Positions 14,313 to 62,290 of a stretch of DNA of 64,000 bases are shown piece after piece. Every line of letters starts with the position of its first letter. Position 1 is the stretch's first letter. This DNA comes from Candidatus Obscuribacteraceae bacterium (GTDB taxonomy: Bacteria; Cyanobacteriota; Vampirovibrionia; Obscuribacterales; Obscuribacteraceae): positions 672,001 to 736,000 of the forward strand of contig JBGAHS010000003.1 of NCBI GenBank assembly GCA_044226015.1, in the 5' to 3' direction. The translations under genes were made by a program, and so were the position numbers. Under the pieces are notes generated by a model, which worked only from the letters and a program-made list of their open reading frames with translations, had not been told where the DNA came from and made no database searches.

Positions 14313-14636
14313 ATGAAAACCTGCGACACGACCACCTGCGGCGCCACCTCTTGCTCCGGCGCCTGCGCCTGCTCCAAGGGCATCCGCACGCTCTACCTGC
14401 CGGCACGCGGTCCCAACGAGCGGCTCGGCGAATTCGGCATCGTGCGCTCCGCCGAGGCCAACATGGTCGAAGTCCCCAACAACTGGGACATCGTTCCCAG
14501 CAGCGTCAGCCCCTACCACCGGCATCTGGTCGATGGCAACGGCAAGCCGGTCTGCTGCATCCTCGACAAGTCGCTCGGCGGCGGCAGCTACCAGTTCACC
14601 TGCAGCGACAACTGCGCCGACGCGGCCAAGAGCTAA
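14313..14636 (+). CDS. small Cys/His-rich hypothetical protein (paralog of 16682-17011)
   Basis: AAGGA RBS, GC3-biased codons, clear paralog 2.4 kb downstream. Confidence 0.75.
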   Translation: MKTCDTTTCGATSCSGACACSKGIRTLYLPARGPNERLGEFGIVRSAEANMVEVPNNWDIVPSSVSPYHRHLVDGNGKPVCCILDKSLGGGSYQFTCSDNCADAAKS

Positions 14637-16318: not shown

Positions 16319-16681
16319 TCAAGGCTCCTGAAAAACTTTCCAGTGTGAACATTCCTCAATCTAAGCAAGCTAAAACACTGCATGTGTTCTGTGTGTTTGT
16401 GCAGTTGGCAGAGCTGGGCCGACTAACTTTTGTTAACTCCCGTAGATACACCATGCCCCTGCGCTTGAGGCGGCATGCCCCTGCCTGCAAGAGTGAGTCA
16501 CAACTCTTATCGCCTCGACACCAATAAACGCCATACCCAGAACACAGCCAGACCAATATTCATCCTTTACCAGCTTAGCGACTAGCGCTGAGCGAGGTGA
16601 ATTGTCGGCTGCGGCGATCTGAGTTTTTCGCTGACTTCCTTGAAGCCAGTAACTCTCAACGTGATAGCGAAAGGATACCCA

Positions 16682-17011
16682 ATGAGCAACGACACCACCG
16701 CCAAGACGAAGTGCGACGCCTGCGCCTGCGGCAATCTGAAGCATGTGCACATCCCGCCGCGCGGTCCCATCGACGAGCTCGTGGCTCGCGGCGCCAGGCG
16801 CACCTGCATGCCCGCGGACTTCCACAGCATCCAGATCGCGGTTCCGCGCGACTGGGCCATTCTGCCGACCGGCGTCAGCGACCTGCACGACCATCTCTGC
16901 GACGGCGAAGGCAACGTGATTGCCTGCATCCTCCGCAAGACCGGAAGCGGCGGCGCCGGCTCTTTCCAGATCGCCAGCAAGGACAACTGCGCCGAACTGG
17001 CGAACAGCTGA
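16682..17011 (+). CDS. small Cys/His-rich hypothetical protein (paralog of 14313-14636)
   Basis: AAGGA RBS before ATG 16682. Shares ACAC, PxRGP, VPxxWxIxP, HxHLxDGxG, CIL and DNCA with 14313-14636. Confidence 0.75.
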   Translation: MSNDTTAKTKCDACACGNLKHVHIPPRGPIDELVARGARRTCMPADFHSIQIAVPRDWAILPTGVSDLHDHLCDGEGNVIACILRKTGSGGAGSFQIASKDNCAELANS

Positions 17012-21159: not shown

Positions 21160-21735
21160 ATGCATGACATGCACATGATGATGGGCGCAGCCTGCTGCTC
21201 ATCAGGACATTCCACCGAATGGATGTCTTATCTTGGACTCTTCCTCTCGATGCTGTTCGGAGCATTCCATGCTTCGCGCATGTTCCAGAAGACGTGCCGC
21301 CAGGGTGAAGACGCTTGCCACCTGTTCATGTATGCCGGCATGGCCTACATGTTCATTCCCAACCCTGAGCTTCACGTCATCCCCGGCTCGCTCTGGGCTC
21401 TGGCGTTCAGCATCACGGCGCTTCTTTCCGTCACCAAGATGTATCGCACTCAAAACGCTTCCACTAGCGGCGTCCTGCATACGCTCATGAACCTCGCCAT
21501 GGCCAGCATGTTCGTCGTGCTGCCAGGTGCAGAATTCACCAACACGCTCTGGAACGTGTTCTACGGCGTTTACATCGGCTTCTACGCGATCAAATTCTTC
21601 TCGCCCCAAGCTGCCATGGAAGGTGGCACCGGCGATCGCTTCAACCCTGCACTCGTCTACAACGTTTCCAACATCGTCATGGCAGCTCTGATGCTCGCTA
21701 TGACTCTCACCCCCATGTGCATGCACATGGGCTAA
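21160..21735 (+). CDS. Met/His-rich membrane protein (DUF5134-like)
   Basis: Repeated H-x-x-M-x-x-x-M-x-x-M helices (HLFMYAGMAYMF, HTLMNLAMASMF, NIVMAALMLAM). Met/His-rich termini. Confidence 0.7.
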   Translation: MHDMHMMMGAACCSSGHSTEWMSYLGLFLSMLFGAFHASRMFQKTCRQGEDACHLFMYAGMAYMFIPNPELHVIPGSLWALAFSITALLSVTKMYRTQNASTSGVLHTLMNLAMASMFVVLPGAEFTNTLWNVFYGVYIGFYAIKFFSPQAAMEGGTGDRFNPALVYNVSNIVMAALMLAMTLTPMCMHMG

Positions 21736-21770
21736 TTCAATCGCAAGCACAAAAAGAAAGGAAGAAACTC

Positions 21771-21956
21771 ATGCTCACAACCATCGCAACTCTGGCTTTC
21801 GGTGCCCTTTTCGGCATCGTCCTCGCGAAGAAGACCGCGGCTTGCTGCAGCACGCCCGACGGACAGAAGTTCAAGTTCGCGAACTTCTTCTCTGGCGGCT
21901 GCAAGTGCAAGTCATCTCCCGGCTCGCCTTGCCGCTGCGGTGACTGCAGCTGCTGA
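21771..21956 (+). CDS. 61-aa membrane-anchored Cys-rich, metallothionein-like peptide
   Basis: AAAGGA RBS before ATG 21771. N-terminal TM helix, then CC and CKC...CRCGDCSC (8 Cys). Terminator follows. Confidence 0.65.
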   Translation: MLTTIATLAFGALFGIVLAKKTAACCSTPDGQKFKFANFFSGGCKCKSSPGSPCRCGDCSC

Positions 21957-22512: not shown

Positions 22513-22557
22513 GGAAGAAGGCGGCTCTCACGAGTCGCCTTCTTCCTCTTCTTTTTT
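22513..22557 (+). terminator. intrinsic terminator
   Basis: GGAAGAAGGCGGCTC-TCAC-GAGTCGCCTTCTTCC followed by a pyrimidine/T tract. Confidence 0.7.
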
Positions 22558-23175
22558 ACTTTTAAACCGCTTTTTGAAACCCGGTTTACGCTGTACGCAC
22601 GCTTTTTTGTATCAGTTGTCTTCGGTTCGACAAAAGTTGCTGCTACCACCAATAACACCATAACCTCACAGCAGCGATTACCAGAAATGGTACGCAAAAC
22701 TGTCACCTCAGCAGCAAACATTAACCAGTAAGGCACTGGGAAATTCCACCAACTTTTCCATTTTAAAGTGCCGCAAAGATCTGTAATCTTGTAAACAACT
22801 GCTTATTACCTATTTGCTAATCAGAGCAAGAAAAAACCGAAAACGGCTTAATACCATACGTCACGCCCAAGTGTTCGATATGCCATGTGCAAGCTGGGCC
22901 AGGAATACTTAGGCTACAAAAAAACTAAGAGCCGCAGCATATACCGCATAAAGTCACGCTTTCCGGTGCCGCCAGAGCGCAGCTGCATTTGACTGAGGCA
23001 ACGCAATCATAATAAACCATGACTGTCTCTCTCATTTCGTTCAGCATCAGGTCCCTCCAAACAGACCGTCCTACCACAAAAAACGAAGCGACCTCATGCC
23101 TACGCCGTGTGAGAGATAGACAGCCATGTTCGCGTTCGGACAGTTCAACCCCCAACTCCGCAACAGGAGAGCACT

Positions 23176-23259
23176 ATGCCCAACAACAACCAGACCACCG
23201 TCCTCATCTACATCGCGCTGATGTTCCTCTTCATCTTCGCGATGTCCGGTCACCACTGA
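23176..23259 (+). CDS. 27-aa hydrophobic micropeptide, copy 1 (MPNNNQTTVLIYIALMFLFIFAMSGHH)
   Basis: CAGGAG RBS, ATG..TGA in frame, single TM-length hydrophobic stretch, GC3-biased codons. Confidence 0.75.
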   Translation: MPNNNQTTVLIYIALMFLFIFAMSGHH

Positions 23260-23320
23260 CCGCCGGCCACTCGCAATTCGGCGAGCAGTCCATCCACCCG
23301 CTCCGCAACAGGAGAGCACT

Positions 23321-23404
23321 ATGCCCAACGGCAATCAGGTCTACGTCCTCATCTACATCGCCATGATGTTCCTCTTCATCTTCGCGATGTCCGGTCACCA
23401 CTGA
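23321..23404 (+). CDS. 27-aa hydrophobic micropeptide, copy 2 (MPNGNQVYVLIYIAMMFLFIFAMSGHH)
   Basis: CAGGAG RBS; frame and length conserved with copy 1. Confidence 0.75.
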   Translation: MPNGNQVYVLIYIAMMFLFIFAMSGHH

Positions 23405-23469
23405 CCGCCGGCCCGCTCGCAATTCGGCGAGCTAGCCACCATCCACCCACTCCGCAACAGGAGATCACC

Positions 23470-23553
23470 ATGCCCAACGGCAACCAGGTCTACGTCCTCA
23501 TCTACATCGCCATGATGTTCCTCTTCATCTTCGCGATGTCCGGTCACCACTGA
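23470..23553 (+). CDS. 27-aa hydrophobic micropeptide, copy 3 (same peptide as copy 2)
   Basis: CAGGAG RBS; differs from copy 2 only by a synonymous AAT/AAC change. Confidence 0.75.
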   Translation: MPNGNQVYVLIYIAMMFLFIFAMSGHH

Positions 23554-24435
23554 CCGTCGACAGACTACTCAGTCTTCATTGACTGAGTGAGGATTCTTCC
23601 TGTTCACGTTTCAACCAGACCGGGATGAAGCGGAAAGGGTGCTTAACAGCACCCTTTCTTGCTTCCGAGCGTTAGTGTCTTTATGAATCAGTAAACCGTC
23701 GCTGAGATTTTACATTTTTTTCGCCACTTTTTTGTCCTTTTCGCCGCTGTTTGGTACCATGCGGCGCCATGAGGATCGTATTTCCAAGGCAAATAAAGTC
23801 GACGGCCAATTTCATTGAGCCAGTCCAATTTCTTTTTGCATTTTAAATCGCAAATTGGCGAGTACTGTTTTTGAATTTACTCTGTTCCAAACCACGCATA
23901 GCATGCCGACTCATTCTCTATTCCGGAATAGACAGCTGCATATAAACAAGCTGATTGCCAAATCAACCAACAGCAAATTTAGCAGTCAGAACTACAATTA
24001 CCCACAGTTGTCTGCAAGAGGATCCACACCCTAGCAAGGCCCTGCTAAGCAACGAAATGTGACAATGCTTCTATTCGTTGAATGCGCATTGCACCAGCGC
24101 GCAAGACGCCTTAGGGTAATAATAACCTTTCACTGTACGTAGCACTCCCGAATTTTCCAGAAACAACGACCTGATATCACAAACCAGCACATTGATGTGA
24201 CAACACCACATCTGGTATCAGTCGTCTGGCGTGCAGGAGGAAGGCTTGAGTCATACCCGCACGACCGGCATGTCCGCTCGATGACGGCACTTTGGCGCAA
24301 ATAGCAGTTAAACGCGACAGGCTTCGGCTTGCCGCTAAACAGGGCTATTTGCGATGCTGCGTTTGAAAGAGCAAATACAGACAGTCCTGCTTGGCACCAG
24401 AAAGACCTGTCGCTTCAAATGCGAAGGGTCTAAAA

Positions 24436-26681: not shown

Positions 26682-27407
26682 TTACTTCTTCTCCGACTCC
26701 TTCTTCAGCTCGTCGAGCGCGTCCTGACCTTCCTTCTTCTTCTTCTCTTCCTCGAGGCGGTCCTTGGCGCTGTCCTTGTCCATGTCGCGCTTGGCGCGCT
26801 CCTTCTCCAGCTCTTCGTCGATCTGCTTGTCGGCGTCGGCGAAGCCGCCCATGCCGTCCTGGATCTCCTTCAGCTGGTCGCGGACCTCGTTCTCGATGCG
26901 CAGCGCCGCCGTCAGCTCGACCTTGCCTTCGTTGGTCTGGATCTGGTCGGCAGCCTTGGACAGCAGCTCCGCCGTCGAAGCCAGCGCCTTGCGCGATTCC
27001 TCGGCCGACGCGTTGAACTCGGCGACGGTCTTCTTGTAGTTCTCGACCTTCGCGGCGGCGGCCTTCCAGTCGCGGGCGAGCGACTGCTGGTCGGCCTCGC
27101 TCATGTTCATCTTGACGGCGTCGAGCGCGCGCTGCTTGGCGGCGTCGGAAGCTTCCTGCAGCTTGTCGAGCTGCTTCTTCGCTTCGACCGACTTGGCGAT
27201 GGACGACGCGACCGAGTCACGCTGCTTCTTCGAGAGCGCCACGAGCTGGGCGTACTGCTGCTTCTGCTTCTCCAGCGGCGTGGTCGAGCCCTTCACGAGC
27301 TTGTTCCACCAGATGCTGATCGCATCGCGGGTCGGCTTGTGGAAAACGGCAACGCCCACGGCGAGAGCAGCGGCGCCAGCGATGATGAGGTTCGTGTCGA
27401 TGACCAT
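26682..27407 (-). CDS. PspA/IM30-like coiled-coil protein with N-terminal TM helix, copy 1 (241 aa)
   Basis: AAGGAG RBS before ATG 27407. TM helix, amphipathic helix, TTP hinge, long coiled coil with ALDA...LA, and C-terminal LDELKK, matching the PspA layout. Confidence 0.7.
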   Translation of the reverse strand: MVIDTNLIIAGAAALAVGVAVFHKPTRDAISIWWNKLVKGSTTPLEKQKQQYAQLVALSKKQRDSVASSIAKSVEAKKQLDKLQEASDAAKQRALDAVKMNMSEADQQSLARDWKAAAAKVENYKKTVAEFNASAEESRKALASTAELLSKAADQIQTNEGKVELTAALRIENEVRDQLKEIQDGMGGFADADKQIDEELEKERAKRDMDKDSAKDRLEEEKKKKEGQDALDELKKESEKK

Positions 27408-27525
27408 ACGTATTCTCCTTCGTGCAGTGTTCTGCAAAAATTGATGCCCGAATTTGTTGAGCGCGTGAGCAAGGTCCGCGCTGTAAGCAGGAACGGCACA
27501 AGCACCCGGCGGAAGCCGAGCGACT

Positions 27526-27600
27526 CATGCCACTACAAATGGTGTCGTTCCATCTGCAGTAGAAACCTCTCCGTAAGGAGAAAAGGTTTCTGCCGCAGAC
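27526..27600 (-). promoter_or_regulatory. conserved structured leader element upstream of PspA-like copy 1
   Basis: Minus strand reads GTCTGCGGCAG-[hairpin]-CTACTGCAGATGG-loop-CCATTTGTAGTGG. A homologous element lies at 28574-28656. Confidence 0.5.
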
Positions 27601-27693
27601 TGACGCTCAGGGTGGCAGCCTGGCAATGCCAAACTGCCACCCCTTGCGTTTTAGTCAGAACTCAGCGAGTCGAGTCCAGCCGGCGAAGAAGGG

Positions 27694-28419
27694 TTACTTC
27701 TTCTCGCCTTCCTTCTTCAGCTCGTCGAGCGCGTCCTGGCCGTCCTTCTTCTTCTTCTCGTCTTCGAGGCGGTCCTTGGCGCTGTCCTTGTCCATGTCGC
27801 GCTTGGCGCGCTCCTTCTCCAGCTCTTCGTCGATCTGCTTCTCGGCATCGTTGAAGCCGCCCATGCCGTCCTGGATCTCCTTGAGCTGGTCGCGGACCTG
27901 GTTCTCGATGCGCAGGGCCTCGGTCAGTTCGACCTTGCCTTCGTTCGTCTGGATCTGGTCGGCGGCCTGCTGCAGCAGCTGGGCGGTGGCGACGAGAGCC
28001 TTGCGGGCTTCGTCGGCCGACGCGTTGAACTCGGCGACGGTCTTCTTGTAGTTCTCGACCTTCGCGGCCGCGGCCTTCCAGTCGCGGGCGAGCGACTGCT
28101 GGTCAGCCTCGCTCATGTTCAGGCGGACGGCGTCGAGCGCGCGCTGCTTGGCGGCGTCGGACTCCTCCTGCAGCTTGTCGAAGCGCTTCTTCGCCACGAC
28201 CGACTTGGCGATCGAGCTGGCGACGTTGTCGCGCTGCTTCTTCGAGAGGACCACCAGCTCCTGGTAGCGCTTCTTCTGCTTCTCGAGCGGCGTGGTGGCG
28301 CCGTTGATGAGCTTGTTGTACCAGATGCTGATCGCGTCGCGCGTCGGCTTGTGGAAGATGGCCACGCCAACGGCGAGAGCAGCGGCGCCAGCGATGATGA
28401 GGTTCGTGTCGATAACCAT
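27694..28419 (-). CDS. PspA/IM30-like coiled-coil protein, copy 2 (241 aa, more diverged)
   Basis: AAGGAG RBS before ATG 28419; collinear paralog of copies 1 and 3. Confidence 0.7.
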   Translation of the reverse strand: MVIDTNLIIAGAAALAVGVAIFHKPTRDAISIWYNKLINGATTPLEKQKKRYQELVVLSKKQRDNVASSIAKSVVAKKRFDKLQEESDAAKQRALDAVRLNMSEADQQSLARDWKAAAAKVENYKKTVAEFNASADEARKALVATAQLLQQAADQIQTNEGKVELTEALRIENQVRDQLKEIQDGMGGFNDAEKQIDEELEKERAKRDMDKDSAKDRLEDEKKKKDGQDALDELKKEGEKK

Positions 28420-28573
28420 AGTCAAATTCTCCTTAGTGCAGCGTTGTAGCTGCGGTTTGGTGCTGTCCATTGTTTGCGAAAGCGCGTGGACAGCGAGGCG
28501 CGCTGTGAACAGAAACGACATTGCATCCGGTCTTGCATCCTTTGCCGAAGCAGCGGAAACCAGTCCAGAAGCA

Positions 28574-28656
28574 CATGACACTACAGACAGTGGCGACCAT
28601 CTGCAGTAGGAGTTGCTAGCACCCGTTATGGATTGCTAACAACCACTGCCGCAGAC
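28574..28656 (-). promoter_or_regulatory. conserved structured leader element upstream of PspA-like copy 2
   Basis: Same GTCTGCGGCAG and CTACTGCAGATGG segments. The inner hairpin differs in sequence but still pairs. Confidence 0.5.
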
Positions 28657-28706
28657 GAGACGGCAGCCCAGATAAATCTGAGCTACCGCCCGCCTTCAGA
28701 ACGACT

Positions 28707-29054
28707 TCAGTTCTTGACGAACAGGCGTCCGACCATCGCCGCGATGAACAGGCTCATGCTGGCACCGTAAGTGCCCTGCAGGATGAACATCGGAATGGTG
28801 GCGCCGGCGTACCAGAGACCGCCAAGAACAGCAGCAACGAGCAGCGCCGGAACCAGCCGCTTCAGAGCCTCGCTGCCGGACGGACCAGCGTAGAGGTAGA
28901 GCGAAAAGTAGGCGCTGACCAGCAGTCCAACAGCCGCACCAGCCGCACCGCTGACGTAGTCAACGGTCGGACCAAGGCTGAAGAGAAAGCCAGTGATGAC
29001 GCCCGACACCATCCACGTGGTGGCAATCGGGTTATTCTTGATCCACTGAATCAT
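28707..29054 (-). CDS. small membrane protein (about 4 TM) inside the PspA-like cluster
   Basis: AAGGA RBS; four hydrophobic segments. Confidence 0.7.
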   Translation of the reverse strand: MIQWIKNNPIATTWMVSGVITGFLFSLGPTVDYVSGAAGAAVGLLVSAYFSLYLYAGPSGSEALKRLVPALLVAAVLGGLWYAGATIPMFILQGTYGASMSLFIAAMVGRLFVKN

Positions 29055-29173
29055 GGATAAGCAGTCCTTTCTTTGCTTTGAGATTTGTTGTTCAACGAAA
29101 ACACCCGAGAGTGCGATGATTGCTCACCAACACTCCCGGGTGTGACGTCAGTTCAGGCGCCGGCGAAGAAGGG

Positions 29174-29899
29174 TTACTTCTTCTCCGACTCCTTCTTCAG
29201 CTCGTCGAGCGCGTCCTGACCTTCCTTCTTCTTCTTCTCTTCCTCGAGGCGGTCCTTGGCGCTGTCCTTGTCCATGTCGCGCTTGGCGCGCTCCTTCTCC
29301 AGCTCTTCGTCGATCTGCTTGTCGGCGTCGGCGAAGCCGCCCATGCCGTCCTGGATCTCCTTCAGCTGGTCGCGGACCTCGTTCTCGATGCGCAGCGCCG
29401 CCGTCAGCTCGACCTTGCCCTCGTTCGTCTGGATCTGGTCGGCAGCCTTGGACAGCAGCTCAGCCGTCGAAGCCAGCGCCTTGCGCGACTCCTCGGCCGA
29501 CGCGTTGAACTCGGCGACGGTCTTCTTGTAGTTCTCGACCTTCGCGGCCGCGGCCTTCCAGTCGCGGGCGAGCGACTGCTGGTCGGCCTCGCTCATGTTC
29601 ATCTTGACGGCATCGAGCGCGCGCTGCTTGGCGGCGTCGGACTCCTCCTGCAGCTTGTCGAGGTGCTTCTTCGCTCCGACCGACTTGGCGATGGACGACG
29701 CGACCGAGTCACGCTGCTTCTTCGAGAGCGCCACGAGCTGCGCGTACTGCTGCTTCTGCTTCTCGAGCGGCGTGGTCGAGCCCTTCACGAGCTTGTTCCA
29801 CCAGATGCTGATCGCATCGCGGGTCGGCTTGTGGAAGACGGCGACGCCCACGGCGAGGGCAGCAGCACCAGCGATGATGAGGTTGATGTCGATGGTCAT
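29174..29899 (-). CDS. PspA/IM30-like coiled-coil protein, copy 3 (241 aa)
   Basis: GGAG RBS. Differs from copy 1 at 5 residues by my count. Confidence 0.7.
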   Translation of the reverse strand: MTIDINLIIAGAAALAVGVAVFHKPTRDAISIWWNKLVKGSTTPLEKQKQQYAQLVALSKKQRDSVASSIAKSVGAKKHLDKLQEESDAAKQRALDAVKMNMSEADQQSLARDWKAAAAKVENYKKTVAEFNASAEESRKALASTAELLSKAADQIQTNEGKVELTAALRIENEVRDQLKEIQDGMGGFADADKQIDEELEKERAKRDMDKDSAKDRLEEEKKKKEGQDALDELKKESEKK

Positions 29900-30082
29900 A
29901 GTGATTTCTCCAGTTTGTGCAGCGTTCTAAGCTGCGGATTGTGAATGGGTTGAGAAACTCTCGCGTCTTCTTCACAGAAGTCGCGAATGCAATTCATTAG
30001 AGGAAGGGAAATGCCGTGCGTGTTTCTCAGATGAGTGCGAACACTCACCCGATAGCACGCACGGCATGACTGCGACTTCTAC

Positions 30083-33000
30083 TTAGTAGTTGTCGCCACC
30101 CGACGGGGTACCGCCGACGTTGCCACCACCCGAAGGAGTGCCACCGCCCCAGTTGCCGCCGCCAGAGTTGTTGTTGTCGTCACGGCGACGACGGTCTTCT
30201 TCTTCGCGACGCCGGCGATCTTCCTCTTCGCGACGACGACGCTCTTCCGCTTCACGCCGACGATTCTCCTCGTCGATGCGGCGCTGTTCCTCCTGCCACT
30301 CGCGGATCTGCTCCTGAATGGCAGCAGCGAGCTGAGCGTCAGCCCAGCGTTCGGCGCTGTCTGCAGCCGAGTCAGCGCGACGGATGCTGTTGCGAGCACC
30401 TTCGTAGTCACGGCTGCGAATCTCGGCGCTAGCCTGACCGAGATAACGCTGCGCTTCGCTGAGGTCCAGCGTGATCGGAATGACGATCACACGGGAGCGG
30501 CCGCCCCACGTAGCGGTCTGCGTCCAGGAGCGAATCTTGAGCGCGGTGATGCGCGATTCGACCTGGGACAGCTCACTGCGCGCCGTGTTGGCGAGCGACT
30601 TGTCGGCTTCGGCCAGACGCTTCGCTTCGTCAGCCACCGTCTTCTTCGATTCCGCCTGGCGCGACAGAGCCTGCCAGTCAGACTTGGCCACACGGTAGCT
30701 CGCCTCCAGTTCCGCGAGGACCTGGTTGGCGTCGGTCAGCTTCTGACGCGCCGGAGTGCGCACGTCAGGGTGGTCGACGGACTGAGACGCCGAGGAGATG
30801 GCGCTCTTCACAGCCGCGATGCGCTCACCAGCAAGCTGGTAGTCGCGCTTCTCGCTGTCGATGCTGCCATCGACCTTCTTCAGGTCTGCGAACAGCTTGT
30901 CGGCAGCTTCGGCAGCAGCCGGCCAGTCGGTGATGTCCTTGGCGACATCGCTCTTCTGGTTGCGGAGCACCGGCAGCAGCGCAGCGTAGGCGCCGTCCGT
31001 CTGCTTGGAGGTGGTGAACGAATTGGCTTCCAGCTTCGACTTCAGCGAGGTGCTGAACTGGTCGCTATTGGCCACGGTCGACTTCGCGTGCGACCGCAGG
31101 TTACGCAGTTGCTTCAGCCGAGTGGAGATCTCGACCAGGGCGTTGCGGCTGCCCTGCACGTCCGAACCAGCGTTCTCCATGAGCTTGCGAGCCGCGACGT
31201 AGCGCTGCTCGAAGTACGCCGCACGCACCTTGGCCAGCTCAGCAGCAGTCGCCTCGCTCACCTTGGTCGCACGAACGAGCTTCTCCGGCTCACCCTGGAA
31301 GTTCTTCGCCAGGAAGTCCGCCTTGAGGGCATCGACATCCTTGCCGGACGCCGGAAGTTCAGCAGTCAGCTTGCCCAGGTTGTCCCGGACAGCCGGCACC
31401 GACTTCTCGACAGCAGCCTTGGCAGCGATAACGGTATCGACAGTCGCGACCGCCGCAGCCGAAGCCTTGGACGACGCCGCCTTCTCCGCTTCCGCCTTCA
31501 CCAGGTCACCAGCGAGCAACGCCTTGTGAGCGTCATCGAGGTGCTGCTGCGACTCGTCGAGCTGCGAGTCCGGATTGGCGCCCGCTTCGTTCAGCAGGAA
31601 CTTCTCCGCGACGCCCGCCGGAACTTCGCCCTGTTCCGGGTAGTTGTAGCCGGCCTTCTGAGCCCGCACTTCAGAGACACGCTTGCGCGCGTTCTTCAGC
31701 TCGGTCTCGGTGCCGCCCAACTGGTCCTTCAGCTTCAGGGCATGCTCGATGTCACCCTTCAGCGCTTCGGCTTCCTTCTCGACGGTCTCGGAGTCCGAGA
31801 ACGCCGCCAGCGGGTCGCTCTGGAGGATATCCAGGAACGCCTTCTGGTCCGCCTTGATCTTCTGATAGCGCGGCTCGTAGGGCGAGAAGTCGAGCCCCTT
31901 CTCCTTGATGCTGGCGCGCAGGTCGTCGACCGCCTTGGTGATGGCTTCGATTTCCTGACGGTTCGTCTCCGCTCCGCGGAAGCTCTTGCGGATGGAGCCG
32001 AGGGCCTGGCCGGTCTTGCTGAACAGGTCGGCCATGGAGGCGAAGAGTTCCTCCGGCGTCAGCACGGTCTGCGTCACTTCGCTGCCGAAGTAGTCGCGGT
32101 CTTCGACCGGGATCTTGTCACCGTTGATGGTGACCTTCTCCGTGGTCAGCAGGGCGATGGCACGCTCGGCGCCGGCGACGCTGAAGATGTTCGCCTTGGC
32201 AGCAGCGGCCTTGGCTTCGGCGAGTAGAGCCTTCGCCACTTCGTTCTGAGCGCTGAGGTTCGCCCAGAAGCCGACCGCCTCGGTATAGACCTTGAGGGTC
32301 TTGTTCTTGAACTTCGACTTCCAGTCGGTGCCCTGCGAGACGAGGAACGGCTTGTACTCGCCCTCGAGCTCGATGTAGTTGCCGTTGGACTTGTTGAACT
32401 TCTCTTCGGTGTCCTTGATGAGCGCTTCGGCACGAGCCTTGGCGCGACGCAGACGCAGGAACAGGAAGAGGAAGAGACCGATCACCGCAGCGCTCGGCAC
32501 GCCGATCATCACGATGGTGGTCATCTGCTTCTGACGCTCGGCAGCATCGAGGACAGCCTTCTCGTGGTCGATGCGGTCTTGCTCGGCACGCGCTTGAGCA
32601 TCACGCTCGGCGGCCTGACGAGCCTGTTCGGCACGAATGCGGTCTTGCTCGGCAGCTTCACGAGCCGCGATCGTCCGGTCGATGCCGCTGTTCACGTTCT
32701 TGATCACCTGCAGCATCGCCGCACGAGGATTCGACGGCATGAACTGCTTCAGCGCAGGCGTCACCGGACCGTTGATCTTGTCGCTCAGTCGCGCGTGGTC
32801 GAAACCATAGCTCACGAGCGTAGGACCGGAGTAAGCAGCGACCGAACCCTTGTTGGGGTTCTGCGCGTTGCGGACCCAGACCACGACCATGAAGTTCTGG
32901 TTCGGGAAGTTCGACAGCCCGGACCAGCGCGGAACGAGGTCGTCGACCACATCACGAGCAGGAACACCGGTGGTGTTCAAGTCGTAGTCGCGCTCGACGG

Positions 33001-33235
33001 CAATGACGAAGACCTCGAGCTTGTGAGCCTTCTGAAGAGTCTTCACCTCGTCGTTCATGCCGCTGAAGTCGACGGGATAGGAGGAATGATGTTCGAGCGC
33101 CGGGTCCACGTAGACGTGGGTGGCGGGGTCGAACTTCGGCAGCCAGTTACTCGCGGCTTGTGCCGAGGCGGGGGCGATGGCTGCGACAAGCAGCAGCATC
33201 ATCCCCACAATGAGACGTTGCAAATTTTGGAACAT
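30083..33235 (-). CDS. 1050-aa membrane protein: signal peptide, TPM-like extracytoplasmic domain, TM helix, very long coiled coil, R/E-rich repeat, Gly-rich tail
   Basis: GGAG RBS. AxA signal peptide, alpha/beta domain (HVYVDP, LEVFVIAV, VDDLVPRW, MVVVWV), TM (IVMIGVPSAAVIGLFLFLFL-RLRR), (RRREEED)n and GGGNWGGGTPSGGG tail. Confidence 0.75.
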   Translation of the reverse strand: MFQNLQRLIVGMMLLLVAAIAPASAQAASNWLPKFDPATHVYVDPALEHHSSYPVDFSGMNDEVKTLQKAHKLEVFVIAVERDYDLNTTGVPARDVVDDLVPRWSGLSNFPNQNFMVVVWVRNAQNPNKGSVAAYSGPTLVSYGFDHARLSDKINGPVTPALKQFMPSNPRAAMLQVIKNVNSGIDRTIAAREAAEQDRIRAEQARQAAERDAQARAEQDRIDHEKAVLDAAERQKQMTTIVMIGVPSAAVIGLFLFLFLRLRRAKARAEALIKDTEEKFNKSNGNYIELEGEYKPFLVSQGTDWKSKFKNKTLKVYTEAVGFWANLSAQNEVAKALLAEAKAAAAKANIFSVAGAERAIALLTTEKVTINGDKIPVEDRDYFGSEVTQTVLTPEELFASMADLFSKTGQALGSIRKSFRGAETNRQEIEAITKAVDDLRASIKEKGLDFSPYEPRYQKIKADQKAFLDILQSDPLAAFSDSETVEKEAEALKGDIEHALKLKDQLGGTETELKNARKRVSEVRAQKAGYNYPEQGEVPAGVAEKFLLNEAGANPDSQLDESQQHLDDAHKALLAGDLVKAEAEKAASSKASAAAVATVDTVIAAKAAVEKSVPAVRDNLGKLTAELPASGKDVDALKADFLAKNFQGEPEKLVRATKVSEATAAELAKVRAAYFEQRYVAARKLMENAGSDVQGSRNALVEISTRLKQLRNLRSHAKSTVANSDQFSTSLKSKLEANSFTTSKQTDGAYAALLPVLRNQKSDVAKDITDWPAAAEAADKLFADLKKVDGSIDSEKRDYQLAGERIAAVKSAISSASQSVDHPDVRTPARQKLTDANQVLAELEASYRVAKSDWQALSRQAESKKTVADEAKRLAEADKSLANTARSELSQVESRITALKIRSWTQTATWGGRSRVIVIPITLDLSEAQRYLGQASAEIRSRDYEGARNSIRRADSAADSAERWADAQLAAAIQEQIREWQEEQRRIDEENRRREAEERRRREEEDRRRREEEDRRRRDDNNNSGGGNWGGGTPSGGGNVGGTPSGGDNY

Positions 33236-35090: not shown

Positions 35091-36313
35091 AGGTATTTGC
35101 CTTTCTGGGTTTGGTTCTTAGAACCGTTTAGAACAGACAGACTCCAGACGTTTGCCTGAAGTACTAGACCTGAAATCCCACATTCAATACGAATCGGCAC
35201 ACATCAAAGCGCACTAAACGGGAGTTAAATTGTTCGGGTTGCTTTGAAGTTGCCGGGTTTCGAAAGAAGAGAGAGGAATAACAGGTAGGACTCGAAGATA
35301 GCCTGTTTAGACAAGCGAAACCAAGAACAATTTCAAGCGTTCCAGATCGGCTGAAGAGCTAGACCTGCATGACTTCTCGGGCTGTTGCTCGGGTCGGAGA
35401 TGTCAGGTTTTTTACTGAACCGGTCGCTATCGCAGCTATGACAGCCACTAAAGATTATCCTCCTTTTGATTCTGCTCCCTAGCTGCCAGCATATACGTGA
35501 TTTGCGCTAGCCATCTCTTCGAAGGCTAGCGGGATTTGTATAGTGCTCACGATGTCGCCAGGATGGTCGCGTCCGAGGTTTCGGATCCCAAAGGGATGGC
35601 CTCGCCCCCAGGATTCCAAATTGATCTATATGATCAGGAGTTGCTTGCCTGCCCCCTGCCCCAAATCATACTACGCGCTTTAGTACAACAATCAAAAACA
35701 CCAGCTCGAAAGTTCTTCCGAACCGCAAGAAGAAAAATCCTATACATAGGATCCAAAACAGCCACTCTCAGCTGACTTACAGCCATTCGTAAAATACGAT
35801 TTTCATTAACGGCCTAACGAAGCGAGCCTCTCAGAAAACCTCTTGAGAACTGAGCAAATATCGATTTGGTAAGCCGCGCTAATACGCTGGGCATCAGAGT
35901 TTTACTTAGAAAGCGATAATGAGACCATTCAATATCAAAAGCCATCTCACAACAAATTCCTAATATTTGGGGCTTTACAGCCTTTTTTGCCACGTCTATC
36001 ACCCCTACGCCCAAGGGCATACTGAGCAATTAATATTTTGCATTGAAGTAAACGCTCTTCTTAATATTGTAATTACCCAGTTAACAAATCCCAGCCCCCC
36101 CTCAGAAACCAGCCCCCAAAAGCGTTCCCAAAAAAGTTCAATTAACAGATTGCCTCTAAAAGAGTGCACAGAGCTAAACCGCTCACTGGAATCTGACCAA
36201 GGCTGTTTAAGAGGAGCAAGCTGCTTCTCTAGTCCCTCGCAAGAAGGACCGTTTTTCACCAGCAAGCCGCCCGTGTGTGGCTGGCAACTTTTTTCCTCAA
36301 CCGGAGAAAACAC

Positions 36314-37303
36314 ATGCATGTACCAATCTTTCTTCATCCGGTCGTCGGCATCGCGACTGGACTCATCGGGCTCGGAGTACTCTGGGCTCGAAGCAGAAGG
36401 CAGCCCGCAGTGCAGCACTCACAGGTCGGTATCCACACCAACCTGCGAAGCTTCCCACTGGTCGGCTGGCTGCCTTCGTTGTTCTACCTCTGCCTCATCG
36501 CTTCTCTGTCCGGGCTGCTCGCCTGGCCTGTGTTCAAAGAAAGCGTTGAGCAGCGGCACGTCGAAACGCGGGATGTCCTGCTGAGCGTTGACCAATCGGG
36601 TTCGATGGGTGGCGCGATTCAGGCCGGCCCTCCGCAAGACCTCAACTGGCCCCCAGACAAAGGAACATTCCGGCGACTGGACCTGGCACAATACGCAGTG
36701 CAACTGTTCGTCTCAAAGCGAGCTGGTGACCGCGTCGGTCTCACTGTCTTCGACGACAAGACCTATCGGCACTACCCGATGACAGACGACTTGAAGATCA
36801 TCATCCGTAAAGCCGAGTTGATCAGCAAGAACACCGGCGGTGGCACCAACTTCGAAAGTCCTACCGGACCAATCGCCACAGCCATCGAGCACTTCCGAAC
36901 CTGGGGCAAAGCCAAAACCAAAGTCCTGATTCTGGTCACGGACGGTGAAGCTCCAATTTCAGATGAGCGGATGGCCGAGCTCGTGAAAGAGATGAAGGCT
37001 GTCGGCGGAAAAATCTATGTCCTCGGCATCGGTGAGGACTGGACTAACCCGTCGGACTTCACGAGCAGCCAAACTGAACCACTCCGCAAGATTGTCGCAG
37101 CCCTCGGTGGCAAATGTTTCGCTGTCGGAGACGCGAAGCAAATGGCAGAGGCGCTATCGGTGGTCGATCAACTCGAAAAATCGCAGGTCGTGCTCGAGCG
37201 CAGCACGGTCTACCAGGACGCCTACCAGTACTTCGCTGCGGCGTCGGTTCTTTCTCTTCTCCTGCTAGCCGCGTCGGTGCTCGTCACCCGCGAGCTGGTC
37301 TAA
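36314..37303 (+). CDS. membrane-anchored vWA protein (MxaC/BatA-like), cluster 1
   Basis: GGAG RBS. Two N-terminal TMs, MIDAS DQSGS, GDRVGL, GGTN, TDGE and a C-terminal TM. Confidence 0.88.
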   Translation: MHVPIFLHPVVGIATGLIGLGVLWARSRRQPAVQHSQVGIHTNLRSFPLVGWLPSLFYLCLIASLSGLLAWPVFKESVEQRHVETRDVLLSVDQSGSMGGAIQAGPPQDLNWPPDKGTFRRLDLAQYAVQLFVSKRAGDRVGLTVFDDKTYRHYPMTDDLKIIIRKAELISKNTGGGTNFESPTGPIATAIEHFRTWGKAKTKVLILVTDGEAPISDERMAELVKEMKAVGGKIYVLGIGEDWTNPSDFTSSQTEPLRKIVAALGGKCFAVGDAKQMAEALSVVDQLEKSQVVLERSTVYQDAYQYFAAASVLSLLLLAASVLVTRELV

Positions 37304-37322
37304 CCAAAAGGAGCCTACACCT

Positions 37323-37958
37323 ATGAAAATGTTCAAGAAATGGCGCCAGCTCACCGGGCTGGTGCTCGCCGCAGTGCTTGGAGGCGTGCTGCTCTTCGGG
37401 TCGAGCAAACTCAACTCGTGGGAGTCGCCCCAGGTCATTGCCTACAACCATGGCATCGCTGCTATGAAGGAAGGCAAGGTCGATGAGGCCATGCTTGCCT
37501 TCGACAAGAGCCTCGATGCCTACGCATCCATGGCGCAACGAGAGAGCACGGAATCCAAGCTCTACCCGAGCCGTTCCACTGAACTCGCTGCGCTTGCTCA
37601 GAGCAAGAAAGCGATTCTCTACCTGATGAAGCAGAAGCCCGAACTCGCGGTGAAAGCTTTCAAGGAGAGCATCCAACTCAACCCGGGAAGCATTGAAAGC
37701 GAGCAGCTGAGCCAGCTGTTCGTGGACGAACCGCTTACCAGCAACGACATCAGTCGCCTGAGCGACCAGTCCAGCGTGGTCAAACACAACCTGGAGCTGT
37801 TGTTCAAGAAGAACCAATCTCTCGCACAGGGCGAAGGGAAAGGCAAGGGCAAGGGCAAAGGCAAGCCCGGCGACAAAGAAGGAAAAGAAGGAAACGAGCC
37901 AGCTCCGGGCAGCAAACCTGGTCCTGGTTCCGGCAAGAGCAACCCTAACGCCATCTAA
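37323..37958 (+). CDS. membrane-anchored TPR-like protein (MxaK/BatC-like), cluster 1
   Basis: AAGGAG RBS. N-terminal TM, YNHG TPR-like helices, HNLELL and a G/K/P-rich disordered tail. Confidence 0.75.
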   Translation: MKMFKKWRQLTGLVLAAVLGGVLLFGSSKLNSWESPQVIAYNHGIAAMKEGKVDEAMLAFDKSLDAYASMAQRESTESKLYPSRSTELAALAQSKKAILYLMKQKPELAVKAFKESIQLNPGSIESEQLSQLFVDEPLTSNDISRLSDQSSVVKHNLELLFKKNQSLAQGEGKGKGKGKGKPGDKEGKEGNEPAPGSKPGPGSGKSNPNAI

Positions 37959-37977
37959 CTGGCAGGAGGAACAAGCC

Positions 37978-39033
37978 ATGCATTTTACTCACATGGAATT
38001 TGCCTGGCTCGCTCTCTTGCTGCCAGTTCTGGGCGCGGCGCTCTACGCCGGGCACAAGCTGCGCATGCAAGCAAAGCGAGTTTACGGCACAGAAAACCTG
38101 CTGGAACGCTTCCAGCAAACTCAAAAACGCACGCTGCCGAGCTGGATCCACATGCTCGGTATCTTCTGCGTGGGTGCTTTACTCGTCATCGCTGCGATGG
38201 GTCCGACAACGAACCTGACCAAGCAGCGCGTCTCAGACGGCTCGGTGCAAGCCGTAGTCGTCCTGGACGTTTCTCGCTCTATGGCTGCTGAAGATTATCG
38301 GGAATCGATGCCAGCTGACGCTGGACAGAAACCCGACCTGAATCAGCCCTGGGGTAGCCGACTCGACATGGCGAAGTACCAGATTCTCAAAGTGATGCAA
38401 TCGATTCAGGGCAACCAGTTGGGCATCGTCAATTACGCCGAAAAGGGCTTCCCTCAGGCGGACTTGACCCCCGACTTCACTGCTCTGGATTTCATTGTCA
38501 GAAACTGGGTGACTCAGGGAAATGCACCGGGCGAAGGCTCGCACTACGACAACGGCATCAACGAAGCGCTCGAGATGTTCAAGCGCGATGCTGACCCGTC
38601 TAAAAAGAAGGTGCTCATCCTCATGTCTGACGGCGGCTTCGACGGGAAACCGGACGAGCTTGCCAAAGTCGTTGAGGAACTCAACAAGCAAAACGTGAAG
38701 GTCGTTATCATCGGACTCGGCATGCCGGGAGCCAACGCTATCCCCATCTATGTGGACGGCAAGCTCACGGGCTACATGAAGGCTGAGGACAAAGTGATCA
38801 CGACCTCTTACGAGGAAGACAACCTGCGTCAGCTGGCTGCGATGACGCACGGGTCGTACCACCACGTGGACACGACTCCTGGCAGCCAAAAAATCGCGAT
38901 TGACTGGAGCAACGAAGTTGGTGGTTCGCGCATTGAAATGCGCGGTACGCCGCTTTTCCCTTACTTCGGTGGGGCGGCGCTCGGTCTCGCGGTGATTCTT
39001 TCCATTGCCGGTTTAGTGCGCAAGAAGGACTGA
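37978..39033 (+). CDS. membrane-anchored vWA protein (MxaL/BatB-like), cluster 1
   Basis: AGGAGG RBS. MIDAS DVSRSMAAED, SRLDMAK, LT.DF, SDGG, L.QLA..T.G.Y, and N- and C-terminal TMs. Confidence 0.88.
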   Translation: MHFTHMEFAWLALLLPVLGAALYAGHKLRMQAKRVYGTENLLERFQQTQKRTLPSWIHMLGIFCVGALLVIAAMGPTTNLTKQRVSDGSVQAVVVLDVSRSMAAEDYRESMPADAGQKPDLNQPWGSRLDMAKYQILKVMQSIQGNQLGIVNYAEKGFPQADLTPDFTALDFIVRNWVTQGNAPGEGSHYDNGINEALEMFKRDADPSKKKVLILMSDGGFDGKPDELAKVVEELNKQNVKVVIIGLGMPGANAIPIYVDGKLTGYMKAEDKVITTSYEEDNLRQLAAMTHGSYHHVDTTPGSQKIAIDWSNEVGGSRIEMRGTPLFPYFGGAALGLAVILSIAGLVRKKD

Positions 39034-39160
39034 GCACAAATCAGCAGGTGAGTGCCTGCTGCAGTTTCTTCCCCCAGAGCGGAGTCGTGTTGACTCCGCT
39101 TCTTTGCGCTGGCTTATCGCTCGAACACTCGAGCCAAACCTTTTCACTGGAGTTTTGAAC

Positions 39161-40195
39161 ATGACTGCTAACACCATCATCAACCCGATCAGCCGCACCC
39201 TGACCCAGGTCCGCAAGGTCGTCATCGGTTACCCGACCATGACCGAACTCGTGGCCTACGCTCTCTACGCCGACGGTCACGTCCTTCTCGAAGGTCTGCC
39301 CGGTCTGGCCAAAACGGTGACGGCTCGCGGCTTCGGTCGCGCCATCGAAGGCGCCGAATGGTCCCGTATTCAGATGAAGCCCGACATCCTGCCGTCCGAC
39401 ATCGTCGGTGCGGAAGTCTTCAGCAAGAAGACGCAGGAATTCAGCGTCCGCAAGGGACCGATCTTCGCCAACATCGTCCTGGCGGACGAAATCAACCGTG
39501 CTGCTCCTCGCTCGCAGTCGGCTCTGCTGGAAGCCATGGCGGAAAAGAGCACCTCGCTCGCCGGTCAGACCTTCCGCATGCCCGACCTGTTCTGCGTGCT
39601 CGCCACCATGAACCCGATCGAGCAGGAAGGTACCTACCCGCTGCCCGAAGCGCAGCTGGACCGCTTCCTCTTCAAGGTCACGATGGGCTACGCTCCTCGT
39701 GATGCTTACAAGGCGATGCTGAACAACCAGAAGACGCTCAAGGGCAGCGACCCGCACAAGGACATCGTCGCGGACGTGACGGTGAACGAAGTGCTGGCTG
39801 CTCGCGCCGCCATCAACGAAGTGCACGTCAGCTCTGCCGCCCAGGACTACATCCTGGACTTGGTGGATGCCAGCCGTCCGTCGGACCAGATGTTCACCAA
39901 GTTCGTCTCGCTGACCGGTGCCGAAGGCAAGAAGTTTGCCGAAGCGGTGCAGGTCGGTGGCTCGCCTCGTGCTTACCAGGCTGTTCAGATCACCGCACAG
40001 GTGCGCGCCTTCCACATGGGCCGCAGCTTCGTGCTGCCGGAAGACATCCAGTACGTCGCTGGCTCTGTGCTCCGTCACCGCCTGATCCTGAACCGCAAGG
40101 CTCGCATGGACGGCAAGTACACCACGGACGATGCCGTCAAGGCGCTGGTCGCCGGCGTGCCGTTCCACAACAACCTGGCTGACTACCAGGGCTAA
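39161..40195 (+). CDS. moxR: MoxR-family AAA+ ATPase, cluster 1
   Basis: GHVLLEGLPGLAKT, RIQ..PDILPSDIVG, GPIFANIVLADEINRA, ATMNPIEQEGTYPLPEAQLDRF, SPRA and VLRHRL. Confidence 0.95.
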   Translation: MTANTIINPISRTLTQVRKVVIGYPTMTELVAYALYADGHVLLEGLPGLAKTVTARGFGRAIEGAEWSRIQMKPDILPSDIVGAEVFSKKTQEFSVRKGPIFANIVLADEINRAAPRSQSALLEAMAEKSTSLAGQTFRMPDLFCVLATMNPIEQEGTYPLPEAQLDRFLFKVTMGYAPRDAYKAMLNNQKTLKGSDPHKDIVADVTVNEVLAARAAINEVHVSSAAQDYILDLVDASRPSDQMFTKFVSLTGAEGKKFAEAVQVGGSPRAYQAVQITAQVRAFHMGRSFVLPEDIQYVAGSVLRHRLILNRKARMDGKYTTDDAVKALVAGVPFHNNLADYQG

Positions 40196-40350
40196 GCCCC
40201 CGTCAAAGCAGGCTCGTCGCCTGCCCACCCATGCCACCATCATCGGTGGCATGGGTAGCGGGTTGGCCTGCTTCTTTTCTCAGACCTGTCTCGCGAGCTG
40301 GCACATCGCCAGCCGTTAGAAAGGGCAACGTTTTTGAGAGGACCAATCTT

Positions 40351-41292
40351 ATGAAAACACAGACCGAACTGGAGATTGAAAACATTCTCCAGCGCATCGC
40401 GTTCTGCGCTATTCCGATCAACTGGAAGTCGGAAAACCCGATGCCCGGTGTCGGAGAGCGCAAGAGTCGCTATCGCGGTCCGGGGGCTGACTACGTGGAG
40501 TTCGTGCCATTCGAAGATGGTGACGACCCACGCCACATCAACTGGGCAATGACGGCACGCGCTACCGATGACGATGTCATCTGGCGTACCGTTCATCAGG
40601 AAGAGAAGGAAATTCGGAGCGTGGTGCTGGTGAAAGCCGGCCACTCGATGGATTTCGGCACGGTGCGCACGACCAAGCGCCACGTGGCTGCGGAGATGGC
40701 TGCGTCCATCTACTTCGCGCTGGACAAGACCCGTGACAAAGCGGGGCTCATCTTGTACTCGCGTGATGCCGTACTTCAGGACCTGCCTTGCCGTCAGGCG
40801 ATGAGCACCCTCTACCCTGCGCTGGAATCAATCATCGAATGCGACCCTTACGCACCCACTGCAATCGAGCAGCAAGGTGACGGGTTGTCTAAAGCGCTCA
40901 GCGGATTGCCGACGCAACGCTCGCTCGTCTTCATCGTCTCCGACTTCGAAGACATGAGTGAGAAAGACTGGCGTGAACTGGGCAACGCCGCTTGCTATCA
41001 CGACGTGGTCTGCATCTACGTGCAAGACCGTCGTGAGCGCGAGCTTCCCCCACTGCCGGGCATGCTCGGCTTCCTGGGCTGCTTCTACCGGATTCAGGAC
41101 TACAGCGGCCGCTCTCGTCTCATCTGGAATAACGCCCGCACCCGCCGTATCTACAGCGACAACTTCAAGAAGCACGAGGCGAAAATCCTCTCTGCTCTGG
41201 AAGAACGTCTCTGCCAGACGATGGTTGTGAGCACCGAAGAGGGCGATGCAGCCATCCCCAAAATCCTCGACCTGTTCACAGGTCACTGCTGA
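40351..41292 (+). CDS. DUF58 / MxaS-like degenerate vWA protein, cluster 1
   Basis: G.G.DY.E, GDDPRHINW..TAR, SMDFGT...TK, D..GL and FIVSDF. Confidence 0.88.
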   Translation: MKTQTELEIENILQRIAFCAIPINWKSENPMPGVGERKSRYRGPGADYVEFVPFEDGDDPRHINWAMTARATDDDVIWRTVHQEEKEIRSVVLVKAGHSMDFGTVRTTKRHVAAEMAASIYFALDKTRDKAGLILYSRDAVLQDLPCRQAMSTLYPALESIIECDPYAPTAIEQQGDGLSKALSGLPTQRSLVFIVSDFEDMSEKDWRELGNAACYHDVVCIYVQDRRERELPPLPGMLGFLGCFYRIQDYSGRSRLIWNNARTRRIYSDNFKKHEAKILSALEERLCQTMVVSTEEGDAAIPKILDLFTGHC

Positions 41293-51720: not shown

Positions 51721-52953
51721 GCCAAAATCACACAATTACACAGTTTCGCATGTGAGGATTCGCAGTCTGTGATATCGCCGCTACGCCTGCGCGCTGCGCT
51801 ACCATGCGTGGTATCACGTAGATCTTCGGGCCGTTTTTTCGGATCCAGAAAGTGCATCGCATCTGCTCAGAGAGACTCTCGTTTCAGCAGGCGCTTATCC
51901 GGCAGAATCCCGATGGATAGCCGCTTATAGCGACACAAGACTCTAGACACAGTTCAAAGATCATAGAGTCCGGACAAAAAAACTTCGGGAAAACAAAAAT
52001 GAGTCGAAAACAAAAATGAGGCACTTTGAATTGTAACGCGCCTTCGATTGAGCTTATGGACCGAGATTGCCCATAAAGGAAAAACAAATTCTTGAGCAAG
52101 CGATTTTGAAAAAAATGCAAAAACAGAAACTACTGCGATCAAAAAGTGACGAGAAAACGGAAAAACTCCAATTTTGTAAATCGGAGATCAGCTCGCTTGA
52201 GACGCGGATTTCAGGATGCAACGATTTGCGTAACAGCTAGCAGTCTTCACAATTTCAAGAAAAGTTGTTTCTGTTAGCGCTAGTAAAAGCTGTTTGCAGT
52301 ACAGGCAAAAAAGCAGTTTGTACCTGGGCCAGAATCGGCTGAACAAGCTGATTTCACTAGAGCACTGTGTAAAAACCGATCTGCACAATTACACAGTCTC
52401 GATCTGTGAATGGTATCAGATCAAACAGCTATTTCCAAAATCTCGCAGATCCTGTAGTCAGAAGGCTTTCGGGGTCTGCGAAGCTGCGATAAACATCAAT
52501 CATTTCACTTCTTGTGTAAAGAATGCAAAGCATTGTAAAGAGATTCTCCATGCAGCCCTTTTGCAGTGCCGAAAACGCTTGCTATCACTACGTCATGGAT
52601 CAATCAAAAACACGAGCGAGAAAAATTGCGTTCTGAATCTACCTAAAAGGAAGTTTTGGATCTGCGCGTACATATTGCTACTCTGAACTCACGTTTCGTT
52701 TTTCTTTATCTTTCGGAAATTCCCTCAACCCCTTTTCCCAACAAACTTTCATTCGAACATTTCGCTACCCAGTAGGGTGCAGTTCAGTACGCCAGCTACG
52801 TTCGACACATGTTCGAGCCTGCTAGGTTCATAACGCGTGTCGAAACGGACGCGCTCTGACTGCAATGTCTGCGGACAAAGTGTACAGACCGTGTCCTTAA
52901 CCTAACTGGCGTTGCAGGAAGCAATGTCGGTATCTCTCTTCATGGAGGTTCTA

Positions 52954-54069: not shown

Positions 54070-54082
54070 AGGAGGACTGATT

Positions 54083-54664: not shown

Positions 54665-54677
54665 ATAGGAGACCACC

Positions 54678-60832: not shown

Positions 60833-60904
60833 CGCCACCGCTGGTGGTGCTCTAACCGACAAGGCAAAGGCACCACCAGCCTTCCCTTGAGGAGGTACTT
60901 ATCT

Positions 60905-62152: not shown

Positions 62153-62290
62153 GCCGCTTTGAAATCCGAGCTCGTAGCACAGCACCTGGGCACCGCCCAT
62201 GGTGCTGGCTGCAAGTTCCGAAGAGAAGTAGCTCCGTGCGATTCACGACTTAACCCAACGCGGAGATGCTCATAACAGGAAAGCACTGAT

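Follow-up and report, generated by a model that had tools for sequence, protein, structure and literature searches.

Three tandem copies of a putative 27-codon membrane-peptide gene in a genomic island of Candidatus Obscuribacteraceae

The window analysed here is the whole stretch of 64,000 nucleotides from Candidatus Obscuribacteraceae bacterium (G000:C6:672001-736000, G000 being the genome that carries the array), and positions given without a prefix refer to it. Between 22506 and 24391 we found the gap of about 1.9 kb without long genes that the preliminary description had reported, and inside it three head-to-tail ORFs of 27 codons, each with a ribosome site, an ATG and a TGA stop, at 23176-23259, 23321-23404 and 23470-23553. 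The features of the locus are:

22513-22556, + strand: intrinsic terminator of the upstream 154-aa gene (15-pair stem and T run)
22989-23018, + strand: weak promoter candidate TTGACT, 8/12 consensus matches (relaxed scan)
23018-23128, + strand: predicted long 5' leader hairpin (helices p 0.75-0.99; z -2.6)
23126-23221, + strand: possible leader ORF of 31 codons that overlaps copy 1 in another frame (ORF reading)
23156-23175, + strand: ribosome site of copy 1, its AGGAG in a 4-pair CUCC/GGAG hairpin (sequence, fold prediction)
23176-23259, + strand: copy 1, a 27-aa predicted single-TM peptide (ORF, codon score, codon index, hydrophobicity)
23260-23320, + strand: spacer 1, with a hairpin at 23270-23285 and the ribosome site of copy 2 (motif count, fold prediction)
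23321-23404, + strand: copy 2, a 27-aa peptide (ORF, codon score, codon index)
23405-23469, + strand: spacer 2, with a hairpin at 23410-23437 and the ribosome site of copy 3 (motif count, fold prediction)
23470-23553, + strand: copy 3, its peptide identical to that of copy 2 (ORF, codon score, codon index)
23567-23588, + strand: predicted hairpin 3' of copy 3, placed as the spacer hairpins are, without a U run (fold prediction)
23633-23665, no strand assigned: 11-pair hairpin that closes the unit, terminator-like and close to symmetric (fold prediction)

The ribosome site CAACAGGAGA occurs at 23161, 23306 and 23455, and the start-to-start spacing gives the periods of 145 and 149 nt already described. 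The difference in unit length lies outside the ORFs, as had been claimed, since these are equal while the spacers measure 61 and 65 nt. The three peptides agree letter for letter with those first read. The peptide is identical in copies 2 and 3, which differ by the one synonymous change that had been noticed (codon 5), and copies 1 and 3 differ at 5 codons, four of them changing the amino acid (positions 4, 7, 8 and 15) and one synonymous; codons 16-27 are identical in all three. Concerning the extent of the repeat, the array itself stood but not its proposed start, as the repeated DNA runs from about 23141-23145 to 23559 and begins slightly earlier. The spacer hairpin is indeed present, twice against 0.09 times expected by chance, and the further hairpins are predicted at 23567-23588 and 23633-23658 with a pair probability of 0.96-0.98. 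The array is real and no assembly artefact, because both junctions are found in contigs from two independent studies: pieces from runs X1 and X2 cross junction 1-2 (23239-23365) and separate pieces cross junction 2-3 (23384-23514), in each case with zero letter differences, the support coming from separate pieces and no single one holding the whole array. Depth is raised over the shared stretches, to about twice that of the flank (X1 24.3, X2 25.5; flank about 12) and in X1 to nearly three times (33 vs about 12). No frameshift or premature stop appeared in the homologous repeats, every copy seen being intact.

Codon statistics single out the reading frame of the three ORFs: it scores +9.2 to +10.2, whereas the two remaining + strand frames score between -4.3 and -19.5; the mirror antisense frame is also positive (+6.2). 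The island-type codon index of the copies is 0.90-0.92, compared with 0.61-0.90 for 69 long island genes, and an index of at least 0.85 is reached by 1% of 1041 short ORFs led by a ribosome site. In copy 3, 22 of the 23 synonymous codons end in C or G (P 0.0014 even under island usage). This usage is a mark of island origin and not of high expression, for which the reference set is poor. The base changes between copies 1 and 3 are 7 non-synonymous vs 1 synonymous, and thus this pair gives no sign of purifying selection between copies. The ribosome site of copy 1 pairs with the 16S tail of G000 at -7.4 kcal/mol. The ORFs of the array are unannotated and the family has been missed by gene callers; neither window peptide is present in a collection of 15 billion proteins.

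Residues 1-6 of the peptide form a polar head, followed by a stretch of 17-18 residues that is hydrophobic throughout and by a short tail. The peptide is devoid of K, R, D and E, with a mean hydrophobicity of about 1.0 and a hydrophobic moment of at most 0.23, and one membrane helix is predicted at residues about 7-24, so it reads as a single-pass helix and not as an amphipathic lytic or secreted peptide. The peptides of the staphylococcal psm-alpha operon are amphipathic, charged and exported. Both that operon and the array consist of consecutive very short peptide ORFs, each with a ribosome site, whereas the peptide described here is uniformly hydrophobic. Searches of Pfam at E 0.5 and of NCBIfam at E 1 gave zero matches, short queries limiting the sensitivity of both, and tests against the Ibs, Ldr/Fst, Hok, TisB and ZorO profiles and the Rfam antitoxins, with equally short queries, were negative as well. 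PHROGs returned one match (E 0.18), and the best Rfam hit (E 0.82) is far below the cut-offs. In the Atlas, the best score was 0.77, and 0.76 for the YncL cluster, below the level that shuffled proteins often reach. G000 contains genome-wide 18 similar tiny hydrophobic ORFs, 3 of them being the copies of the array.

A homolog is found in the same genus. G003 encodes a single-copy peptide of 24 aa (L004/L036), whose ORF has an ATG, a stop and a ribosome site of its own and which shares 12 invariant alignment columns with the array peptide; at the DNA level the coding part alone aligns (45/60 nt). The invariant residues concentrate at 14-22, but they fall on no single helix face with any clarity, a permutation test giving P 0.046-0.25, varying with the range used. 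Four tiny hydrophobic ORFs that are unrelated to one another (18, 32, 24 and 52 aa) follow each other in G003, and the homolog is the third of them; it stands between two related palindromes that occur nowhere else in G003, and gives no folding signal (z +0.4). That neighborhood (L036:3635-5612, G003:C24) holds, after a ClpP-like gene, the four tiny ORFs and two more of 69-77 aa, and the 52-aa ORF has a homolog at G000:C6:642922. An alignment-based protein search returned a single candidate, P0007, which is an upstream-extended call of a near-identical allele of the G003 gene (1/1). Two further studies (runs X12 and X16) contain an intact, diverged ORF that aligns through the stop. The X12 ORF shows 5 coding differences from copy 3, two of them synonymous, and its two amino-acid changes are the states of copy 1, all on single contigs at depth 2-3 in which sequence errors are possible. 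The spacers of X12/X16 have diverged beyond alignment, the hairpin core being kept with a new outer stem. Since the X12 ORF is flanked on either side by the same spacer motif, that relative apparently also carries a tandem array.

Beyond these relatives the range is narrow. The gene occurs in one of the 7 other genomes of the genus, namely G003, and matches at E <0.01 in 2/104 genomes of the family and 2/301 of the class, G000 counted. With E up to 1 the family search reached 32 other genomes, all except G003 being partial matches at E of at least 0.04. Three class-level hits (E 0.013-0.019) were set aside, not being ATG-led short ORFs, and two one-mismatch pattern matches, in G001 and G057, were not peptide-like. 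Confirmation was obtained for 1/145 pattern matches in the species-genome collection and 0/95 in viral contigs; among the metagenome matches listed, none of the 119 loci examined (L038-L156) was a relative. In the 11 genomes with a homolog of the upstream gene, no such peptide lies within 1.5 kb of that homolog, and the downstream gene was not found in 7 same-genus genomes. Titles and retrieved summaries of the literature gave nothing on small proteins or small ORFs of Obscuribacterales or on this peptide family, and papers on Obscuribacter genomic islands, by title or the start of the abstract, mention no such peptides. On this record, the micro-gene family is rare and undescribed. The island codon usage, the G003 homolog and the intact X12/X16 variant support that the 27-codon unit behaves as a real gene; the initial proposal of a small membrane-peptide gene multiplied in tandem is in turn supported by the junction contigs, codon usage, homologs and hydrophobicity.

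These comparisons bear on two other readings. It was proposed at first that the Met and His residues bind metal, and a membrane-anchored binder of Cu, Ni or Zn acting through the Met-Ser-Gly-His-His tail and the Met residues would agree with the identity of that tail in the three copies and in X12/X16 and with the Met/His/Cys-rich genes at 21160-21956. Nevertheless, the same-genus homolog stops short of the His pair, which weakens the idea: the pair, a putative ligand, is present in X12/X16 and absent in G003 and in P0007, so that it is not conserved across homologs. In addition, a hairpin predicted over the stop has the His codons as its loop, which may explain their retention, and between the metal-rich genes and the array lie terminators and a further gene, all of which leaves us considering a metal binder improbable. 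Of the genes at 21160-21956 (+ strand), one is a membrane ORF whose start is rich in Met, His and Cys (weak DUF5134, E 0.001), and the other is a TM ORF of 61 aa whose tail is rich in Cys; metal handling is possible. The second reading, a repeated structured non-coding RNA element in which the ORF is incidental, would be favoured by the far better folding of each unit than of its shuffles and by 36 nt of non-coding DNA at G000:C1:697320 that match part of the stop hairpin and the spacer. However, the G003 homolog keeps the peptide and not the fold, the ORFs carry a codon signal and there is no Rfam family, and we hold this reading to be very improbable. The 36-nt piece (G000:C1:697320-697355, L002; 92% match) lies near a LexA-like gene and is also found in runs X1 and X2.

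The terminator at 22513-22556 isolates the array from the upstream genes, and since this terminator and the hairpin at 23633-23658 bracket it, the array is probably a transcription unit of its own. A strict promoter scan yielded zero + strand promoters for it; the region of the candidate at 22989 is kept in X12/X16 with several changes. Changes of X12/X16 in the leader hairpin fall mostly within its loop (23059-23085), and this hairpin had no match in 103 other family genomes. The leader ORF at 23126 has a weak ribosome site (-3.8 kcal/mol), and its start and the next two codons are kept in one low-depth X12 contig in which the adjoining letters differ. The folding of the + strand (z -4.4 to -5.8 per unit against shuffles) suggests an unusually structured mRNA. 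The stretch 23560-23700 folds with z -5.2 on the + strand and -5.8 on the - strand, and the predicted hairpin at 23633-23665, absent from the list of a strict terminator scan, could act on either strand. Two candidates were rejected: TTTAAAAT as an antisense promoter, being a general intergenic motif of the island that is unoriented to gene starts, and a pairing of 23134-23144 with 23661-23670, which needs sequence past the likely terminator.

A type I toxin-like peptide was another early proposal. Each copy encodes a hydrophobic peptide with a predicted TM helix and a size within the 20-60 aa of such toxins, but an antitoxin did not emerge from the sequence. With ibs/sib, ldr/rdl, zorO/orzO and hok/sok, the array has in common a short hydrophobic ORF, tandem copies and a structured RNA, as well as a ribosome site predicted to lie in a hairpin, a long leader and a possible overlapping leader ORF. 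It differs from type I loci (Ibs, Ldr, ZorO, Hok) in that its three ORFs apparently share a single leader and terminator, its peptide lacks charged residues, and neither a family match nor an antitoxin candidate was found. The leader of about 150 nt and the strong folding of each unit would suit a toxin mRNA, and hairpins beyond copy 3 are symmetric; against this, the G003 homolog sits mid-cluster (z +0.4), where the structure and the leader are both missing. On the minus strand, a weak promoter candidate lies at 23966 (8/12), no promoter passes the strict threshold in or 3' of the array, and the units fold weakly (z -1.6 and -2.7); Rfam has no match. For an adjacent divergent antitoxin of the ZorO/TisB type, the best nearby duplex among 256 windows (-32.8 kcal/mol) does not stand out from the controls (1st percentile -33.4 kcal/mol, n=395), no exact 18-mer match exists elsewhere in G000, and no antitoxin candidate stands out by sequence in cis or nearby. 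The repeated cassette of 145-149 nt contains the peptide and leaves out leader and promoter. In ldr and ibs, toxin and antitoxin were duplicated together. The same is reported for zorO/zorP.

The screen by Fozo and colleagues looked for tandem tiny TM ORFs far from neighbours and yielded both the toxic ZorO and the non-toxic YhzE-2 (PMC2887945); the array, with such ORFs in an empty interval, repeats the pattern. Sequestration of the SD is a key feature in T1TAdb, as summarised there (PMC8594479). The ribosome sites of the array are predicted to be paired (unpaired probability 0.01-0.18) in an anti-SD hairpin that has 4 pairs in all copies and is a different hairpin in G003, yet this pairing is ordinary, at the 6th-32nd percentile of 121 island genes. 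The possible overlapping leader ORF at 23126, with its start kept in X12, recalls mok and ldrX (PMC4147584, in excerpt). Most type I toxins have positive C-terminal residues, which the array peptide lacks, although the excerpt that says so gives IbsC, ShoB and DinQ as exceptions (PMC8309996). Taken together, we regard a type I toxin locus as unlikely, if far from negligible. A toxin of new layout, in which a structured leader and an overlapping leader ORF would gate three uncharged toxin cistrons on one mRNA, drawn from shuffled island cassettes of ribosome site, peptide and hairpin, appears distinctly unlikely.

The array belongs to an island with SpoVR, vWA/MoxR, an S41 protease, a nucleoside transporter and many unnamed membrane genes. 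A prophage or an integrase-flanked element was discarded, as C6 600-750 kb holds no integrase match (the nearest at 408 kb) and no terminase, and there is no viral relative. G000:C6 600-750 kb, C8 700-735 kb, C9 0-50 kb and C1 1150-1275 kb share a distinct C/G-ending codon usage; these stretches are rich in unnamed small membrane genes and hold many of the tiny TM ORFs found, and a pair of tiny TM ORFs lies at C8:733722-734022. A T run followed by CATTTTAAA or a close variant, at 22749-22767 and 23830-23847 and at L036:3033, 4508 and 4611, is about ten-fold enriched in island intergenic DNA. At 26682-33235 (- strand), three coiled-coil ORFs (84-96% identical, 241-295 aa, N-terminal TM) follow a 1050-aa ORF, with a similar operon at G000:C8 720-725 kb; they are PspA-like by look alone, with no Pfam support. 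Other paralogs in the window are the Cys-rich ORFs of 107 and 123 aa at 14313-14633 and 16640-17011, two vWA-TPR clusters at 36275-41289 and 52912-55802, and two similar ORFs of 421 and 462 aa at 60887-63676. Families of intergenic tandem repeats of 50-140 nt occur in G000 (C1, C4, C6, C7 and C10), one around the palindrome CGGTACCG and another around GCGAAGCGATAGC.

Whether the triplication carries any benefit is a separate matter. The repeat may be neutral because one of the 7 same-genus genomes has the gene, in single copy, and because tandem duplication is common in G000, which holds 208 tandem arrays of period at least 45, and where a second triplication (the 241-295-aa gene) lies 3 kb away. 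The gene would then be real but dispensable, and its triplication the by-product of a duplication-prone genome without dose benefit. One X7 contig joins the start of copy 2 to the flank of copy 3, as in a two-copy strain, but this join may be a low-depth assembly chimera across 72 identical nt. Arguing also against neutrality, no copy seen is broken and the diverged X12 relative appears to share the tandem state, its changed spacer still with a hairpin, so we consider this reading rather unlikely. Two of the 208 arrays hold several hydrophobic short ORFs led by ribosome sites, and the present one alone has a whole gene of ribosome site plus hydrophobic ORF per unit, the other having nested starts in one frame.

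The explanation to which we give about an even chance is that the array encodes a non-toxic accessory peptide of a larger membrane protein, its output tripled by the repeats; among the options first proposed, a modulator of a transporter or protease fits best. A single hairpin-protected transcript, with ends near 23015 and 23660, would carry the three copies and a separate ribosome site for each of them, and the product would be an uncharged single-pass membrane peptide, by prediction, that may bind its partner through the invariant half A14-x-M-F-L-x-I-F-A22. The array may have grown by unequal recombination, codons 16-27 being presumably kept identical by recent duplication or gene conversion, and more copies would give a higher dose of peptide and a benefit. 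We infer selection for dose, and retention for this cause is favoured because no broken copy was seen and a diverged relative seemingly has the tandem state as well. An envelope role is the likeliest setting, because the island holds coiled-coil, vWA/MoxR and S41-protease genes. AcrZ, CydX, MgrB and KdpF are small accessory proteins with a single TM helix. The array peptide resembles these and YncL in length, in its uncharged helix and in having its own ribosome site, and differs in being multicopy, without homology to them and without an obvious partner alongside. Bacillus subtilis YhzE, which we take to be of the YjcZ/SscA family, is alike in size, in its one TM helix and in its tandem copies in one intergenic region; annotation missed both, and on paper both look like a type I toxin. 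Unlike the widespread YhzE, the array family is rare, shows no profile match to the YhzE/YjcZ type (Pfam and NCBIfam blank) and has one Gly or none at each end, whereas that type has Gly/aromatic-rich termini. For yhzE-2, a tandem gene whose 28-aa hydrophobic protein was not toxic on overproduction, an antisense RNA has been detected (PMC2887945), while no such RNA is known for the array.

The array adds an undescribed small-protein family missed by gene callers, and in the high-GC3 islands of these uncultured bacteria tiny membrane peptides come in runs, a ribosome site and a hairpin accompanying each of them. If the peptide is harmless, the locus would be a clean example of copy-number change in a micro-gene. 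If it is instead toxic and leader-gated, this non-photosynthetic lineage of cyanobacteria would have a type I toxin whose single mRNA carries several cistrons.
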